Sequence record: MT682711.1
From: Escherichia phage vB_EcoM_FB
Reading direction: 5' to 3' (one strand)
Length of the DNA stretch: 64,000 nt
Shown: piece by piece, positions 691 to 41,922 of the stretch
Layout: each line of letters opens with the position of its first letter
Numbering within the stretch: the stretch's first letter is position 1
Notes under the pieces: generated by a model
The model's input: the letters and a program-made list of their open reading frames with translations, nothing else
What the model was told of the DNA's origin: nothing
Databases searched by the model: none
Translations under genes and position numbers: made by a program

Positions 691-726
691 TTTATTCTCC
701 ATTTCACTCTGTTGTTTTGATAGGTC

Positions 727-755
727 TATAGTATCACACCTATAGACCTTGTACA
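727..755 (-). promoter_or_regulatory. T4-type early promoter inside an inverted repeat
   Basis: minus strand reads GTGTAC-17bp-TACTAT; inverted repeat GGTCTATAG/CTATAGACC spans it; conserved leader GACCTATCAAAACA follows. Confidence 0.55.
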
Positions 756-768
756 CTGTTTTATGCAA

Positions 769-2628: not shown

Positions 2629-2853
2629 TTAACAGCTACTTGGATACCAGATTTTACCATCAGCTTGAGCAACGAAGGTACGACCAGCTTCTTCACCATA
2701 ACAAGAGCTATTCAGCCAATCTTCGAGACGAACTTCGCCGTCATAATCATCTAGCTCAACACCAAAATCCTGAGCAGAAGCCATATCTTTTACTTTCTTA
2801 TACAGTGCAGCCAGTTCAAGAGCAGCTTTTTCTAATTCATTAATATCAGACAT
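2629..2853 (-). CDS. small acidic protein, paralog 1 of a 4-member tandem family (74 aa)
   Basis: ORF-track frame 2629..3003 trimmed to the ATG at 2853 (Met51, AGGAAA RBS) because the upstream part overlaps the next paralog; C-terminus ...GKIWYPSSC. Confidence 0.6.
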   Translation of the reverse strand: MSDINELEKAALELAALYKKVKDMASAQDFGVELDDYDGEVRLEDWLNSSCYGEEAGRTFVAQADGKIWYPSSC

Positions 2854-2863
2854 TTTTATTTCC

Positions 2864-3076
2864 TTAGCAAGACATAGAAGAAGTAAACCAGAAACCATCG
2901 CCATCTGGGATACCGTAATCATCACGGACCCATTCGTAATCATCATATTCCGGATTCTTTGGAGAAATGTATTGTCCACGACCGGAAACATGGAACTCTT
3001 CACCTGTTTCGTCAGCCACGGACTGGCCTTTACGTACTAATTCGTGGATTTGTTTTTCAATTTCATCAATAGTCAT
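2864..3076 (-). CDS. small acidic protein, paralog 2 (70 aa)
   Basis: ORF track; RBS AAGGTAA; C-terminus GFWFTSSMSC. Confidence 0.65.
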   Translation of the reverse strand: MTIDEIEKQIHELVRKGQSVADETGEEFHVSGRGQYISPKNPEYDDYEWVRDDYGIPDGDGFWFTSSMSC

Positions 3077-3085
3077 TTTATTACC

Positions 3086-3367
3086 TTAACATTCAGAAGA
3101 AGAGGACACCCATCCACCTTTTTCAAGGTCTGTGGTGTAGTCGTGGGTGTTAACGATAGCGTATTGAGGCTCACCGTATTCTTCCCAGTGGGCAAGGTCA
3201 GCTTTCAAGGCGCCAGGAGAATAATAGTCACCGCCCATACCGCGAGCAGGGTATATATTAAAATGAGTCTCATATTTGTTTGCAATTTCCTCGGCGTGGC
3301 GAATAGCCTTATGGATGTCATTTACTGCGTTGGCCAGTTCTTTATTTTTACTGTAATCATTCATCAT
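3086..3367 (-). CDS. small acidic protein, paralog 3 (93 aa)
   Basis: ORF track; RBS AAGGAAA; C-terminus GGWVSSSSEC. Confidence 0.65.
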   Translation of the reverse strand: MMNDYSKNKELANAVNDIHKAIRHAEEIANKYETHFNIYPARGMGGDYYSPGALKADLAHWEEYGEPQYAIVNTHDYTTDLEKGGWVSSSSEC

Positions 3368-3376
3368 AACGTTTCC

Positions 3377-3667
3377 TTAGCACAATGCCGAAGAGGAGAC
3401 CCAAGCACCAACTGTAACGACGCCGTTTTCAACTTCACCGCCGTTGTTTTCAATTTCATCTTTAAACCACTGGGAGCATTCATAGCCGATAGGGTAATAT
3501 GTACGACCTGAACCATAATCGCCCGTACCGAATTGAATACCATACTTATCAGCAATTACTTCACATTCATGTTCGATGGTATCCACTTTATTCAGAAGAG
3601 CATAGATAGCTTTTTCTGCAGATTTCTCGTCGTTGTGTTCTGGGATTTCAATTTCAATTTTATTCAT
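3377..3667 (-). CDS. small acidic protein, paralog 4 (96 aa)
   Basis: ORF track; RBS AGGAAT; C-terminus GAWVSSSALC. Confidence 0.65.
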   Translation of the reverse strand: MNKIEIEIPEHNDEKSAEKAIYALLNKVDTIEHECEVIADKYGIQFGTGDYGSGRTYYPIGYECSQWFKDEIENNGGEVENGVVTVGAWVSSSALC

Positions 3668-5663: not shown

Positions 5664-5688
5664 TATGTTCTCCTCAAATTATGGGCTC

Positions 5689-5718
5689 ATAATATCTTAA
5701 TCATGAGCCCATGTAAAC
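5689..5718 (-). promoter_or_regulatory. T4-type early promoter inside a 10-bp inverted repeat
   Basis: minus strand GTTTAC-18bp-TATTAT; inverted repeat ATGGGCTCAT/ATGAGCCCAT. Confidence 0.5.
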
Positions 5719-5720
5719 AA

Positions 5721-5984
5721 TTATTTCATATTATTGAAATAATCTTCCGCATCAAAATCGTTATCATGATAAACTTTGGTAGACGATTTAGCATAACCTT
5801 CAGCTGAGAACATATTAACCACAACCTTAATTGTATACCATTGTCCGTCTTCATTACCCATTACAGCATACGTTTCATATACCGGATGTTCAGGACCGAT
5901 AACCTTAATATCGTTAACAGTAGCACCAAATTCTTCAGGAACGCATTTCATAAAGAAATTAAACAATTCACCGTAATTATCCAT
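5721..5984 (-). CDS. hypothetical protein (87 aa)
   Basis: ORF-track frame 5721..5999 trimmed to ATG at 5984 with GGAGAG RBS in the conserved leader. Confidence 0.55.
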   Translation of the reverse strand: MDNYGELFNFFMKCVPEEFGATVNDIKVIGPEHPVYETYAVMGNEDGQWYTIKVVVNMFSAEGYAKSSTKVYHDNDFDAEDYFNNMK

Positions 5985-6019
5985 TTTACTCTCCTTCACT
6001 CTGTTGTTTTGATAGGTCT

Positions 6020-6048
6020 ATAGTATCATGTTTAAAGGAGGTGTAAAC
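6020..6048 (-). promoter_or_regulatory. T4-type early promoter with conserved leader
   Basis: minus strand GTTTAC-17bp-TACTAT followed by AGACCTATCAAAACAACAGAGTGAA. Confidence 0.55.
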
Positions 6049-6070
6049 ATCTTTTTAAACTTTTTAGAAA

Positions 6071-6778: not shown

Positions 6779-6854
6779 TGGTCGAGGCAGTAGGGATCGA
6801 ACCTACGACCTAGGACTTAGAAGGTCCTTGCTCTTCCTTCTGAGCTATGCCCCG
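6779..6854 (-). tRNA. tRNA-Arg (anticodon TCT)
   Basis: hand-folded cloverleaf: acceptor CGGGGCA/TGCCTCG, D-stem GCTC/GAGC, anticodon stem AGGAC/GTCCT with loop CTTCTAA, T-arm GTAGG-TTCGATC-CCTAC, encoded CCA. Confidence 0.85.
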
Positions 6855-6857
6855 TAA

Positions 6858-7526
6858 TTAAAATTTCATTTTTCGACCTTTAAACCATCCTTCTGGAATT
6901 GGGTCAGTTTTCTTAATACGTTTAGAAACTTTTTCATCTAATGAATGAATCCACATCATACCAAATTGGGAATTCTTTTCGCCCTGTTGATGTTTATTTC
7001 TGGCGTGAGATTCTTTCATTTTATTAATAGTTTCAGGAGTATGATGCTTATTTAAAAATCTGCTATTATTTAAAAATTTTTCCCTGTATTCAGGAGTTGA
7101 CCACAAGCGTTTAAATACATTTGAACCATGTTTACGATATTTTTCTTGAAGTAAAATATCACTTTTAAAACGTGACTTAAACGATTTAGCTCCTTTTAAA
7201 CTAGCGTCTTTCTTCTGGTTTAGCATCCCAGGAATATTTATATGGTCCCAACCACCTTCACCACCTAATTTCAAATTATAAACATCAGGGCGCTTTAAAA
7301 ACTCTTCAGTCACAATATTCTTTTCTGACTCAAACATAGAGGTTTTATCGTCAAAGAACTCTCTAATATTTCTTTAGAAAAATTTTCTATACCATACTTA
7401 TCTTGGGCTCTTTTTAATAATTTACCAGAACCCATATATCCATCATCTAAATTTTCGGTAGAATGAGCGCCTATATAGATTTTTATTATTAATTTTATTT
7501 GTTATTTTATAAATGTAATGGAACAT
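6858..7526 (-). pseudogene. GIY-YIG homing endonuclease disrupted by two frameshifts
   Basis: three frames together rebuild a protein collinear with the intact paralog at 12737-13249 ([15 protein letters not shown] / [26 protein letters not shown]... / ...NLKLGGEGG...); AGGAG RBS before the first ATG. Confidence 0.6.
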
Positions 7527-7567: not shown

Positions 7568-7638
7568 TGGCCCTGGGTGGAATCGAACCACCATCCAGCG
7601 ATTATGAGTCGCTCGCTTGACCGTCCAGCTACAGGGCC
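7568..7638 (-). tRNA. tRNA with CAT anticodon (Ile2-type as in T4, or Met)
   Basis: acceptor GGCCCTG/CAGGGCC perfect, anticodon stem AGCGA/TCGCT with loop CTCATAA, T-arm GGTGG-TTCGATT-CCACC; CCA not encoded. Confidence 0.8.
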
Positions 7639-7733: not shown

Positions 7734-8114
7734 TTAACCTTCATCAACAATAGTGTGGGTATTGGCATTAACAATTTGCCACCAGTCGAAACGATTAGAA
7801 CCGTATTGAGGCTTATTCTCGTTTTCTTTAATGATATCACGCAGTTCATCTTCAGTCGCGGCCTTTGCGATTAAGTCGGCATAACCGCCACGGGGATAAT
7901 AGTTATCACCAGCAAAGAGTAAAAAGTTTGTTTTAATATTCTTGAATTCTTCAAGAGTAATAACTGTTCCAGATGGTTGGACAATATCTACGTAACTATA
8001 TCCTAATTTCTGGGCTTCATTTACTGCTTCAAGCAGGGTGTCATGGGCCCATCCAATTTGACAATCCGGTTTTTCAGATGGGTTGGCTTGATAATCTGCG
8101 TACACTTTATACAT
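7734..8114 (-). CDS. hypothetical protein (126 aa)
   Basis: ORF-track frame 7734..8162 trimmed to ATG at 8114 with AGGTGA RBS. Confidence 0.55.
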   Translation of the reverse strand: MYKVYADYQANPSEKPDCQIGWAHDTLLEAVNEAQKLGYSYVDIVQPSGTVITLEEFKNIKTNFLLFAGDNYYPRGGYADLIAKAATEDELRDIIKENENKPQYGSNRFDWWQIVNANTHTIVDEG

Positions 8115-8115
8115 T

Positions 8116-8301
8116 TTACTCACCTTTAGAGATTTTATCCATAACGAAAGAGATTGAACCAATTAAAAATGCCACTACTAAAGAGATTGTATTCTCAGAA
8201 GTTGTAAGCAAATCCAACATGAATCCTGCAAACATACTAAAACTAAAAGTGGTAATAGCAATAAGGGCAGTAGCATTTCTAATTAATTCACAACGTTTCA
8301 T
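8116..8301 (-). CDS. small membrane protein (61 aa)
   Basis: ORF-track frame trimmed to the ATG after the GGAG RBS in the conserved leader; two hydrophobic segments. Confidence 0.5.
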   Translation of the reverse strand: MKRCELIRNATALIAITTFSFSMFAGFMLDLLTTSENTISLVVAFLIGSISFVMDKISKGE

Positions 8302-8337
8302 TTTATTCTCCAATCACTCATTTGTTTTGATAGGGCT

Positions 8338-8367
8338 ATAGTATCATCACTAAAGCCCGTTGTAAAC
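8338..8367 (-). promoter_or_regulatory. T4-type early promoter with conserved leader
   Basis: minus strand GTTTAC-18bp-TACTAT then AGCCCTATCAAAACA; partial inverted repeat GGGCT/AGCCC. Confidence 0.5.
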
Positions 8368-8369
8368 AA

Positions 8370-8630
8370 TTATTTTAGATAAATTGCATATTTTTTATAG
8401 CCAGCTGTCTCGTGGCGCAACCCTTTGTCATTAGCAAAGCGTTCAATATTATTAATTTGGTTTTGGTCGAGTTCTGAAATATCAAATACAAAAAAGTTTC
8501 TCTTATTGCCTAAAGTTACGTGATTAGTCAAATCGATGTTATAGAGATGATTTATATTATCAATCACGGTCTTAACAGATTTGTTAATTTTTACTTCCTC
8601 ATTAAGAATAAATTCTTGATAAGTTTTCAT
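8370..8630 (-). CDS. internal protein (ipI-locus) with capsid-targeting N-terminus
   Basis: N-terminus MKTYQEFILNE resembles the T4 internal-protein targeting peptide with an L-x-E protease site (recalled from T4); lies next to 57B as ipI does in T4. Confidence 0.6.
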   Translation of the reverse strand: MKTYQEFILNEEVKINKSVKTVIDNINHLYNIDLTNHVTLGNKRNFFVFDISELDQNQINNIERFANDKGLRHETAGYKKYAIYLK

Positions 8631-8667
8631 TTTGGGTTCCGTTTGGTTAGTTTGTTTTGATAGGTCT

Positions 8668-8696
8668 ATAGTATCATATTTATAGACCTTGTAAAC
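8668..8696 (-). promoter_or_regulatory. T4-type early promoter inside an inverted repeat
   Basis: minus strand GTTTAC-17bp-TACTAT; inverted repeat GGTCTATA/TATAGACC; leader GACCTATCAAAACA. Confidence 0.55.
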
Positions 8697-8703
8697 AACT
8701 TTT

Positions 8704-9381
<678 letters not shown>

Positions 9382-38193: not shown

Positions 38194-39768
38194 ATGGCAA
38201 ACTTTAATACAATATTAAGTTTTCTTAAGCCATGGGCTAATGAAGACGAAAAAGAATATAAACAACAAATTAATAACAATTTAGAGTCTGTCACCGCACC
38301 TAAGCTTGATGATGGCGCTCGCGAAATTGAGACACAAGAGCAAAATATTCCTTATAATGCTCTTATGCAACAGATGTTTGGTAGTAATGAGCCTGAAGTT
38401 AAAAATACCAGGGAACTTATTGATACCTACCGTAATTTAATGAACAACTATGAAGTCGACAACGCCGTACAGGAAATTGTGTCTGACGCTATTGTCTATG
38501 AGGATGATAAAGAAGTAGTTGCATTGAATTTAGACGGGACAGAATTTAGTCAAGCAATTAAAGATAAAATCTTGGCCGAATTCAGTGAAGTTTTAAACCT
38601 TTTAAATTTCCAACGTAAAGGTACTGACCATTTCCAACGCTGGTATGTAGACTCAAGAATTTTCTTTCATAAAATTATAAACCCTAAAAAAATGAAAGAT
38701 GGCGTACAAGAGCTTCGTCGCTTAGACCCACGCCAAGTCCAATATATTCGTGAAATCGTTACACGTATGGAAGATGGCGTTAAAGTTGTAGACGGATATC
38801 GCGAGTTTTTCGTTTATGATACAGGCCATGAAAGTTATTGCGCTGATGGACGCATTTATTCAGCCGGGACTAAAGTTAAAATTCCTCGTGCTGCAGTGGT
38901 TTATGCTCATTCTGGATTATTAGATTGTTGTGGTAAAAACATCATTGGCTATTTGCAACGTGCTATTAAGCCTGCAAACCAGCTTAAATTGATGGAAGAC
39001 GCAATGGTCATCTACCGTATTACACGTGCTCCCGACCGTCGTGTGTTTTATATCGATACAGGTAATATGCCTTCACGTAAGGCTGCAGCACAAATGCAAC
39101 ATATCATGAACACGATGAAAAACCGTGTGGTGTATGATGCTTCGACAGGTAAAATTAAAAACCAACAACACAATATGTCCATGACTGAAGACTATTGGTT
39201 GCAACGTCGTGATGGTAAAGCGGTAACAGAAGTTGATACAATGCCAGGTGCTACTGGTATGAGTGATATGGATGACGTTCTTTATTTCCGCACAGCACTT
39301 TACCGTGCGTTGCGTGTTCCTGAATCACGTATCCCTAGCGAGTCTAATTCTGGTGTTATGTTTGATGCCGGTACAGCAATCACTCGTGACGAATTAAAAT
39401 TCTCTAAATGGATTCGTCAACTACAAAACAAATTTGAAGAAATTTTCCTAGACCCGTTAAAAACAAACCTCATTCTTAAAAAGATTATTACAGAAGATGA
39501 GTGGGAAAAGGAAATAAATAATATTAAAGTTACGTTTAACCGTGATAGCTATTTCAGTGAAATGAAAGATGCTGAAATCATGGAACGCAGAATCAATATG
39601 CTAACGATGGCTGAACCATTTATTGGTAAGTATATTTCACATCAAACGGCTATGAAAGATTTCCTCCAAATGACCGACGAAGAAATTAATCAAGAAGCTA
39701 AGCAAATTGAAGAAGAGTCTAAAGAGGCTCGTTTCCAAAACCCAGATGAAGAAGAAGAGGATTTCTAA
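38194..39768 (+). CDS. 20: portal vertex protein gp20
   Basis: 524 aa, identical length to T4 gp20; synteny. Confidence 0.9.
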
Positions 39769-40013
39769 TGGAAGATTTAATCGAAGCTATTAAATCAAAC
39801 GACCTCGTAGCAGTTCGTAAAGCAGCAGCCCCGCTTATCGAATCTCGAGTAACCGCTTTGATTGAAGCCCGTAAAGCAGAAATTGCTCGCTCCGTTATGA
39901 TTGAAGGCGAAGAAGCTGACGAAGATGACGAAGACGACGAAAAATCCGATAAAGCAGATAAGAAAGACAAAAAAGAATCTGACGATGCGGATGATGACGA
40001 GGACGACGAATAA
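39768..40013 (+). CDS. 67: prohead core protein gp67
   Basis: 81 aa, highly acidic C-terminus, position after gene 20. Confidence 0.7.
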
Positions 40014-40441
40014 TGTTCCTTATCCCTGATGATTACGAATTAACTCTAGAAAGCGTAGAGGCCAAAATTCCAGAAGCACAGGGACGTTTTGCTGCTCTTT
40101 CTGAAGCGCTCGAGAAAAGCGATATAAATAATCTTGTAGAGAACATGATTGCTGAAGGCGATATCGAATGTGCTATCGCTCTTGGTTCTTTAAATGAATC
40201 AATGGCTCTTAACGAATTTATAGTTAAACACGTTTCCTCTAAAGGTGAGCTTACTCGTACTAAAGATATTAAAACCCGTCAACGTAATGCGTTCCAAACG
40301 ACAGGTTTATCTAAAGCAAAACGCCGTCAGATTGCTCGTAAAGCATCTAAAACCAAACGTGCTAATCCGTCTACTCAAGTACGTGCCGAACGTAAGCGTA
40401 AGAAAGCCCGTTCTAAACGTAAAGCTTTTGGACTCAACTAA
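40013..40441 (+). CDS. 68: prohead core protein gp68
   Basis: 142 aa (T4 141), basic C-terminus, synteny. Confidence 0.7.
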
Positions 40442-41076
40442 TGAAACCTGAATTGCTCATCGAACATTGGGGACAACCAGGTGAAATTATCGATGGGGTT
40501 CCTATGTTGGAATCTCATGATGGAAAAAATTCTGGGCTTGCTCCCGGCCTTTATATAGAAGGCATTTTCATGCAAGCAGAGGTAGTTAACCGTAATAAAC
40601 GGCTTTACCCAAAACCTATTTTGGAAAAAGCCGTTGCCGATTATATGGCAGAACAGGTTGCTACTAAACAAGCTTTAGGAGAATTAAACCACCCACCTCG
40701 TGCTAACGTTGACCCTATGCAAGCTGCTATCATTATTGAAGATATGTGGTGGAAAGGTAATGATGTTTATGGACGTGCACGTATCATCGAAGGTGACCAT
40801 GGCCCGGGTGATAAACTAGCTGCAAATATCCGAGCTGGCTGGGTTCCTGGTGTTAGTTCTCGCGGTCTTGGTTCTTTAACTGAAACCAATAAAGGATATA
40901 AGCGTGTAAACGAAGGTTATAAATTAACCGTCGGTGTTGATGCAGTATGGGGACCATCTGCTCCTGATGCTTATGTAACTCCGAAGCAAATTACAGAATC
41001 ACAAACGGTAGAAACCGATACCAGTGCCGATGACGCCTTTATGGCTCTCGCAGAGGCCATGAAAAAAGCGTTATAA
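40441..41076 (+). CDS. 21: prohead core protease gp21
   Basis: 211 aa (T4 212), synteny. Confidence 0.85.
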   Translation: MKPELLIEHWGQPGEIIDGVPMLESHDGKNSGLAPGLYIEGIFMQAEVVNRNKRLYPKPILEKAVADYMAEQVATKQALGELNHPPRANVDPMQAAIIIEDMWWKGNDVYGRARIIEGDHGPGDKLAANIRAGWVPGVSSRGLGSLTETNKGYKRVNEGYKLTVGVDAVWGPSAPDAYVTPKQITESQTVETDTSADDAFMALAEAMKKAL

Positions 41077-41079
41077 ATA
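41072..41079 (+). promoter_or_regulatory. late promoter TATAAATA upstream of gene 22
   Basis: exact consensus overlapping gp21 stop. Confidence 0.6.
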
Positions 41080-41106
41080 TTATTATCTAAACAACAGGAC
41101 TACAAA

Positions 41107-41922
41107 ATGCTTAAAGAACAACTGATCGCCGAAGCACAGAATATTGATGCTTCCGTTGCTCTTGACAGTATTTTCGAATCAGTTAATATTTCTCCGGAAG
41201 CAAAAGAAACTTTCGGCACTGTATTCGAAGCTACCGTCAAGCAACACGCCGTGAAACTGGCTGAATCTCACATCGCTAAAATCGCTGAAAAAGCGGAAGA
41301 AGAAGTCGAGAAAAATAAAGAAGAAGCTGAAGAAAAAGCCGATAAGAAAATCCAAGAAGCTGCCGGTCGTTTCCTTGACCACGTTGCTAAAGAATGGATG
41401 GCTGAAAACCAGCTGGCTGTTGATAAAGGTATTAAAGCCGAACTGTTCGAATCCATGTTGATGGGTATGAAAGAACTGTTTGTTGAACACAATGTGGTTG
41501 TTCCAGAAGAAGCAGTAGATGTTGTTGCTGAAATGGAAGAAGAACTCCAAGAGCAGAAAGATGAAACCGCTCGTCTGTTCGAAGAAGTTGGTAAGCGCGA
41601 CGCGTATATTAATTACGTACAGCGTGAAGTTGCTGTTACGGAAGCAACTAAAGACCTGACTGAATCCCAAAAAGAAAAAGTTAGTTCTCTGGTAGAAGGC
41701 ATGGATTATTCCGATGCATTCGGTAGAAAAATTGGCGCTATTGTTGAAATGGTTAAAGGTCAGTCTGACGTTGAAAACCCAATCACCGAAGCCGCTATAA
41801 ATAAAAATGTAGTCGATGCTGCGGCACTGAATTACATTTCAGAAGCAGTTGAAGAAAAAGGCGCTAAGCCTACCCTGTCCTTCGCGGACCTGTCTGCAAT
41901 CGCAGCATCACGAATTTCTTAA
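41107..41922 (+). CDS. 22: prohead core scaffold protein gp22
   Basis: 271 aa, acidic helical, between 21 and 23. Confidence 0.85.
   Translation: MLKEQLIAEAQNIDASVALDSIFESVNISPEAKETFGTVFEATVKQHAVKLAESHIAKIAEKAEEEVEKNKEEAEEKADKKIQEAAGRFLDHVAKEWMAENQLAVDKGIKAELFESMLMGMKELFVEHNVVVPEEAVDVVAEMEEELQEQKDETARLFEEVGKRDAYINYVQREVAVTEATKDLTESQKEKVSSLVEGMDYSDAFGRKIGAIVEMVKGQSDVENPITEAAINKNVVDAAALNYISEAVEEKGAKPTLSFADLSAIAASRIS

Follow-up and report, generated by a model that had tools for sequence, protein, structure and literature searches.

An Ip9-family gene with a shortened targeting tag in the ipI slot of Escherichia phage vB_EcoM_FB

We analysed a 64,000-nucleotide window of DNA from Escherichia phage vB_EcoM_FB (record MT682711.1) and found that the minus-strand gene at 8370..8630 is almost certainly, by its sequence, an Ip9-family internal protein gene of a Dhakavirus, a T4-like coliphage. 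Its N-terminal tag, MKTYQEFILNE, is a four-residue deletion derivative of MKTYQEFIAE-SILNE and not a native targeting sequence (CTS). The best explanation overall, in which we have good confidence, is that Ip9 would be packaged, processed by gp21 and injected, with an anti-defence function proposed by analogy. An ipI slot holding interchangeable injected proteins that have the CTS alone in common is a textbook feature of the T-even phages, re-discovered here; what seems new is that the tag is naturally truncated and that the domain is more widely distributed, an advance that we judge minor to moderate.

The open reading frame starts with ATG, includes its stop codon within 8370..8630, and encodes 86 amino acids (translation beginning MKTYQEFILNEEVKINK); no other frame in the window begins with the pattern MK[TS][YF]x[ED]F. 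The protein matches the PHROG 7673 "internal head protein" profile with an E-value of 3e-51, residues 1-86 aligning to positions 1-90 of 90, and is 79-91% identical to Ip9 of RB15, VR5 and IME08 (79% for the RB15 protein, P0014, UniProt Q38376); for VR5 Ip9 a value of 97% was also obtained. Pfam and NCBIfam scans of the protein returned no significant family. An identical 86-aa entry for Escherichia phage vB_EcoM_FB, QLF81485.1, bears the title "hypothetical protein FB_0144"; a genome announcement was the only literature that we found for this phage. The nearest genomes are those of Dhakaviruses, VR5 being 94.9% identical across 1.7 kb, and an Ip9 gene is carried by approximately 199 of 629 related phage records. 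Comparison with VR5 gave a dN/dS of 0.11 and comparison with phage 04086 a dN/dS of 0.05; these values and the PHROG 7673 match show, at the level of sequence, that the frame did not arise by chance but is a conserved gene that purifying selection maintains. No paper mentioning Ip9 together with phage was found in the open-access literature, nor were virion proteomics, processing or injection data found in the literature for any Ip9.

We examined the neighborhood of the gene. Directly upstream is a 57B homologue (8704..9159), and downstream are a small gene of PHROG 1692 (8116..8313), placed where T4 has trna.4, and a trna.3-like gene (7734..8162), all on the minus strand. The same-strand order trna.3, trna.4, ip, 57B, 57A, 1, 3, 2 is identical to that of T4, whose ipI occupies the slot between 57B and trna.4 that is taken here by the Ip9 gene. 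The initial annotation had reported an 86-aa frame starting MKTYQEFILNE, placed it beside 57B where T4 has ipI, and proposed that it encodes a different internal protein. The ATG-initiated minus-strand frame and the T4 gene order bear out the first two statements, and the PHROG 7673 match, Ip9 identity, CTS match and synteny agree with the third. The interpretation was sound but restated known biology, the family having already been named Ip9.

Several other features of the region were recorded. The 57B homologue matches the Pfam family Acb1, an anti-CBASS cyclic-nucleotide phosphodiesterase, with an E-value of 8e-59, so that a known counter-defence gene adjoins the presumed injected protein. 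Between tRNA-Arg (6779..6854) and tRNA-Met (7568..7638) lie two adjoining minus-strand frames of 41 and 159 aa (6858..7435), both matching the homing-endonuclease PHROG 314 at consecutive profile positions; the pair resembles an endonuclease gene that has been split or frameshifted. T4 carries segB in the corresponding part of its tRNA region. Further along, at 2629..3667 on the minus strand, four small paralogous genes (70-124 aa) stand in tandem; each aligns with the C-terminal region of PHROG 899, a family of unknown function, and finishes with a similar W-x-S-S-...-C motif.

The ip gene is preceded by a PeSL-type element at 8640..8705 on the minus strand (repeat copy 8651-8705), identified by promoter scan, by membership of repeat family D1 and by a fold z-score of -5.15. 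This element of 55-66 nt combines a 9-bp stem-loop with a sigma-70-like early promoter (TTTACA at 8695..8690, a 16-nt spacing, and TG-TACTAT ending at 8668); the PeSL consensus in T4-type phages is TTTACW-N17-TAYWAT (PMC4122927). Inside the loop, at 8684..8677 and 46 nt before the ATG, lies the late-promoter motif TATAAATA, which occurs 18 times in the window against 7.7 expected; among the repeats, the check for this motif covered the 8651-8705 copy alone. The equivalent upstream copy in phage 04086 reads TATAGGCA and is without TATAAATA. A second PeSL-type element, at 8315..8375 on the minus strand (repeat copy 8321-8375), carries a promoter at 8366..8338 and a stem-loop, with a fold z-score of -3.2; it is predicted to close the ip cassette and to drive the trna.4-like gene. 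The gene is thus bracketed on both sides by the repeated promoter and stem-loop, as in a PeSL cassette. Five such repeats of approximately 55 nt are found in the first 12 kb of the window (711-765, 5672-5726, 6003-6057, 8321-8375 and 8651-8705), and these early promoter and stem-loop units precede small accessory genes on the minus strand.

In VR5 the slot has two genes, annotated ip8 and ip9, and most Dhakaviruses have this pair between the two PeSL-type elements. The window and phage 04086 instead have ip9 without ip8, and their 5′ UTR is identical. Loss of ip8 through recombination between the CTS-coding stretches of a VR5-type ip8-ip9 pair was considered and rejected: the 5′ UTR is unlike that of VR5 ip8, and phage 04086 also has no ip8, yet its CTS is complete. 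Separately, a 77-aa protein annotated 'ip7' in Escherichia phage OLB35 (P0043) matches the Ip9 C-terminus over its last approximately 35 residues; its N-terminal part is unrelated to Ip9 and has no CTS, and the protein is apparently a product of recombination between ip cassettes.

The tag is encoded by codons 1-11 (8598..8630, minus strand), and was delimited by alignments and by identity to the T4 proteins IPII and IPIII, both of which start MKTYQEFIAE. Its first eight residues (MKTYQEFI) are identical, 8/8, to the CTS of those two proteins. T4 IPI starts differently, with MKTFKEFTST... (tag MKTFKEFTSTTTPVSTITE), so the tag of the window protein resembles those of IPII and IPIII and not that of IPI. 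Targeting by the CTS depends mainly on residues 4 and 7, and processing on residues 8 and 10 (PMC9026906); the first ten residues suffice for packaging of IPIII (PMC9026906). Tyrosine 4, phenylalanine 7 and isoleucine 8 are all kept in the window protein, and position 10 is now asparagine.

Aligning the DNA with that of VR5 and phage 04086 locates a clean 12-nt in-frame deletion, TATCGCTGAATC, between TAT microhomologies. The TAT microhomology leaves the exact junction ambiguous, but it falls near 8606/8607, between codons 8 and 9; at the protein level MKTYQEFIAE-SILNE becomes MKTYQEFILNE. Since gp21 cleaves after L/I-x-E (PMC9026906), the VR5-type parental tag has two sites, I8-A-E10 and L13-N-E15. 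With asparagine at position 10 the canonical I8-x-E10 site is gone, and removal of this first site pulls the second (LNE) almost into its place: the putative gp21 site, L9-N10-E11, agrees with the motif but is displaced downstream by one residue. The initial annotation had likened MKTYQEFILNE to the targeting sequence and L-x-E protease site of the T4 internal proteins. The targeting half of that comparison stands, supported by the N-terminal alignment, and matches IPII and IPIII; the L-x-E half needs amending, since the motif derives from the downstream site of the parental tag and is not the canonical one.

The shortened tag has so far been seen in this phage only. The other aligned full-length Ip9 members (84-107 aa, mostly 90) start MKTYQEFIxE or a close variant, which in near relatives is followed by two residues and then (L/F)NE(E/K)VK, and a complete (I/L)-x-E tag is present in every other full-length protein of the Ip9 family that was listed. 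The window protein is the sole 86-aa protein among the members listed or aligned of its 36-member 90% cluster, and the junction sequence had no match in IMG/VR or in JGI metagenome contigs. The allele could accordingly be recent and possibly impaired. Use of L9-N10-E11 is an assumption, because the canonical site is deleted and an aspartate at position 10 of IPIII blocks processing, though not targeting (PMC9026906). One reading of this is that the deletion crippled the tag, so that Ip9 would be packaged uncleaved (core-tethered or bearing its propeptide) or packaged poorly, as a decaying or altered protein. The loss of the canonical I-x-E and the asparagine at position 10, given that residues 8 and 10 govern IPIII processing, speak for it, as do the uniqueness of the allele among the cluster members listed or aligned and its absence from the two large contig collections. 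We nonetheless consider it unlikely: the reading frame survives the deletion, a perfect L-x-E stands one residue beyond the usual position, the targeting residues are intact, the promoter elements are intact, and the remaining gene, with its dN/dS of 0.05-0.11, has no disabling change. With this deletion, nature has in effect tested how far the CTS and its cleavage site can be cut back, a question that bears on the use of the CTS to pack foreign proteins into T4 heads.

The machinery for targeting and processing is present in the same phage, homologues of gp20, gp67, gp68, gp21 and gp22 being found by tblastn at 38203-41916. These include the prohead protease gp21 (40438..41073, plus strand, 88% identical to T4 gp21), which is the enzyme expected to remove the Ip9 CTS, and the scaffold-core protein gp22 (41107..41916, plus strand, 77% identical to T4 gp22). 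The CTS targets proteins to the core, and the gp22 assembly core is thought to bind it (PMC9026906).

Our preferred reading is one of packaging through the shortened CTS and trimming by gp21, which we regard as probable by analogy with T4; most likely, a 75-aa protein with a pI of 9 would be packaged, processed and then injected. The Ip9 gene would be transcribed early and then late through TATAAATA, as suggested by T4 IPIII experiments. Residues 1-8, with Y4 and F7 intact, would take the precursor into the prohead scaffold core, where gp21 would cut after L9-N10-E11, the surviving second parental site, and free the basic protein. Mature Ip9 would remain with the packaged DNA and enter the cell alongside it. 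There, by analogy only, it may neutralise a host factor that would otherwise halt infection before phage gene expression.

Cleavage at the predicted site would leave an N-terminus reading EVKINK... and a mature protein, Ip9*, of residues 12-86 (8373..8597, minus strand; 75 aa, 8.8 kDa, pI 9.0), an extent that agrees with the AlphaFold2 model and with CTS-less homologues of 72 aa, which the predicted mature part matches end to end. The AlphaFold2 model, built on an alignment of 26 sequences, has a pLDDT of 88.5 and a pTM of 0.75. The mature domain is modelled as alpha-beta-beta-alpha-beta-beta and the tag as a short helix of lower confidence (mean pLDDT 58 for the first ten residues). Foldseek against the PDB gave no match at E <= 1e-3, T4 IPI* being absent among the fold matches listed, and a PDB profile search with the window protein gave none either; the predicted fold thus offers no functional clue. 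The initial annotation had also held that the remainder of the protein is unlike T4 IPI, and here it was correct. In a single pairwise BLASTP comparison with IPI only the N-terminus aligned, with an E-value of 0.018. Homology of the mature part to IPI was rejected on this result; the mature protein showed no sequence similarity to IPI* and, among the fold matches listed, no similarity of fold to it.

The domain is found well beyond the T4-like phages. By tblastn and HMM searches, Kagunavirus siphophages (genomes of approximately 44 kb) have CTS-less versions of 72 aa that start MNKATASVV... and are 46-54% identical to Ip9; the gene heads an operon diverging from helicase/primase genes after a gap of approximately 480 bp, and these homologues look like normal early genes. 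A 964-aa protein of Kuttervirus, encoded beside genes annotated as structural, ends in the same domain, with approximately 32% identity. The example from Salmonella phage allotria (L010, 373..3267) belongs to PHROG 3867, and its N-terminus, MAIPSFLNFLEES..., includes an L-x-E motif. A HMMER search of 1.84 billion representative proteins yielded 58 clusters at E <= 1e-3, many of them stand-alone proteins of 65-80 aa and some with other N-terminal extensions. Deeper lineages with T4-type tags were also found (MKTFQEFLNE, MKSFKEYLTE, MKSFKEFVTE). An alignment of 25 diverse members supports one coherent domain. A 776-aa protein with seven matching stretches (P0075) is a LysM-repeat protein and was set aside as a spurious match, and a Pfam scan of ten larger distant homologues (111-305 aa) found no partner domain.

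These homologues bear on another alternative, that Ip9 is newly made from its early promoter and works in the cytoplasm, as the CTS-less versions presumably do, and that the CTS is vestigial. The promoter-like site directly upstream of the gene and the stand-alone 72-aa homologues without any tag would suit it; conservation of the CTS in all aligned full-length T4-like members and in several deeper lineages argues against it, as does the late-promoter motif, and we regard it as very improbable.

Five N-terminally extended homologues were looked up, with matches (E-values of 1e-4 to 1e-9) that are significant, not strong. Four of the five lie in or beside virion-gene modules of unrelated phages. 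One of these (P0087, 125 aa), on a gut metagenome phage contig (L015, 3189..5378), lies between minor capsid and scaffold genes, the minor capsid protein being MuF-like and carrying a fused CdiA_C toxin domain; this position is typical of capsid-packaged cargo. Another is immediately upstream of an SPP1-type portal gene, a third is between a phi29-type major capsid protein gene and tail knob/connector genes, and a fourth is immediately upstream of a tail terminator gene. The fifth is among small genes upstream of the terminase. These contexts are suggestive of packaging of the extended homologues.

We raise tentatively, as an idea to which we give a low probability, that the approximately 70-aa Ip9 domain is a widespread phage cargo module with at least four delivery modes. 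These may be the T4-type CTS, other extensions in head/neck modules (of SPP1-like phages, phi29-like phages and myophages), the C-terminus of the approximately 960-aa Kuttervirus protein, and the free first-transcribed gene of Kagunavirus. If this is true and all act on the same kind of host factor, one would expect a target that is conserved in a broad range of hosts and is not a GmrSD variant specific for glucosyl-hmC, and Ip9 would be the first internal protein whose target is shared by many phage families.

An anti-defence role for Ip9 is proposed because each of Ip1, Ip2 and Ip3 inhibits its own GmrSD-type type IV restriction enzyme (PMC12373910) and because the gene is accessory and cassette-like; on this analogy we would give the role about an even chance. 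With Ip1, Ip2 and Ip3 each shown in 2025 to disarm a single GmrSD variant, Ip9 is a ready candidate for the same assays. The phage families with CTS-less homologues are not known to carry hmC DNA, so that a target specific for glucosyl-hmC is less obvious; the broad occurrence of the domain hints at one that extends beyond the hosts of hmC phages. The Kagunavirus homologues show that the domain does not need packaging in order to work, and its target there is probably not an enzyme specific for glucosyl-hmC. It may also be that Ip9 is packaged and has no part in anti-defence, acting as a basic DNA-associated protein (in condensation or ejection) or as some other host-takeover effector; we give this a small chance, somewhat above that of a crippled tag.

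Among known systems the closest is Ip9 of other T-even phages (RB15, and the 'internal head protein' of VR5, VR7, IME08 and QL01), which is homologous over its full length, has the same locus and combines the same CTS with the same mature domain; the window allele differs in being without the four residues AESI that span the canonical cleavage site. In passages that cite Repoila 1994, two papers (PMC3012670, PMC12373910) describe the T-even phages as having diverse internal (defence) proteins with only the CTS in common. T4 IPI, whose mature form IPI* is an inhibitor of GmrS/GmrD, shares with Ip9 the slot between 57B and trna.4 and the bracketing by promoter/stem-loop cassettes, and IPI* (76 aa, pI 9.0) and predicted mature Ip9 are nearly equal in size and pI; the IPI tag, however, is longer and different, and similarity ends at the tag. 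T4 IPII and IPIII are identical to Ip9 in the first eight CTS residues, and all three are small, basic, expected gp21 substrates, but the mature parts are unrelated, T4 ipII and ipIII lie between denV and e, unlike the Ip9 gene, and Ip2 and Ip3 have known GmrSD targets where Ip9 has none. The Kagunavirus and Kuttervirus homologues have the same domain as Ip9 without the T4-type tag. Finally, the repeats around the Ip9 gene resemble the PeSL mobile cassettes of T4-type phages (Arbiol 2010; Comeau 2014), with the same approximately 55-nt unit of TTTACA-N16/17-TACTAT plus stem-loop; the arrangement is like the one proposed to drive modular gene swapping, and the upstream copy in the window additionally has the late-promoter motif in its loop.
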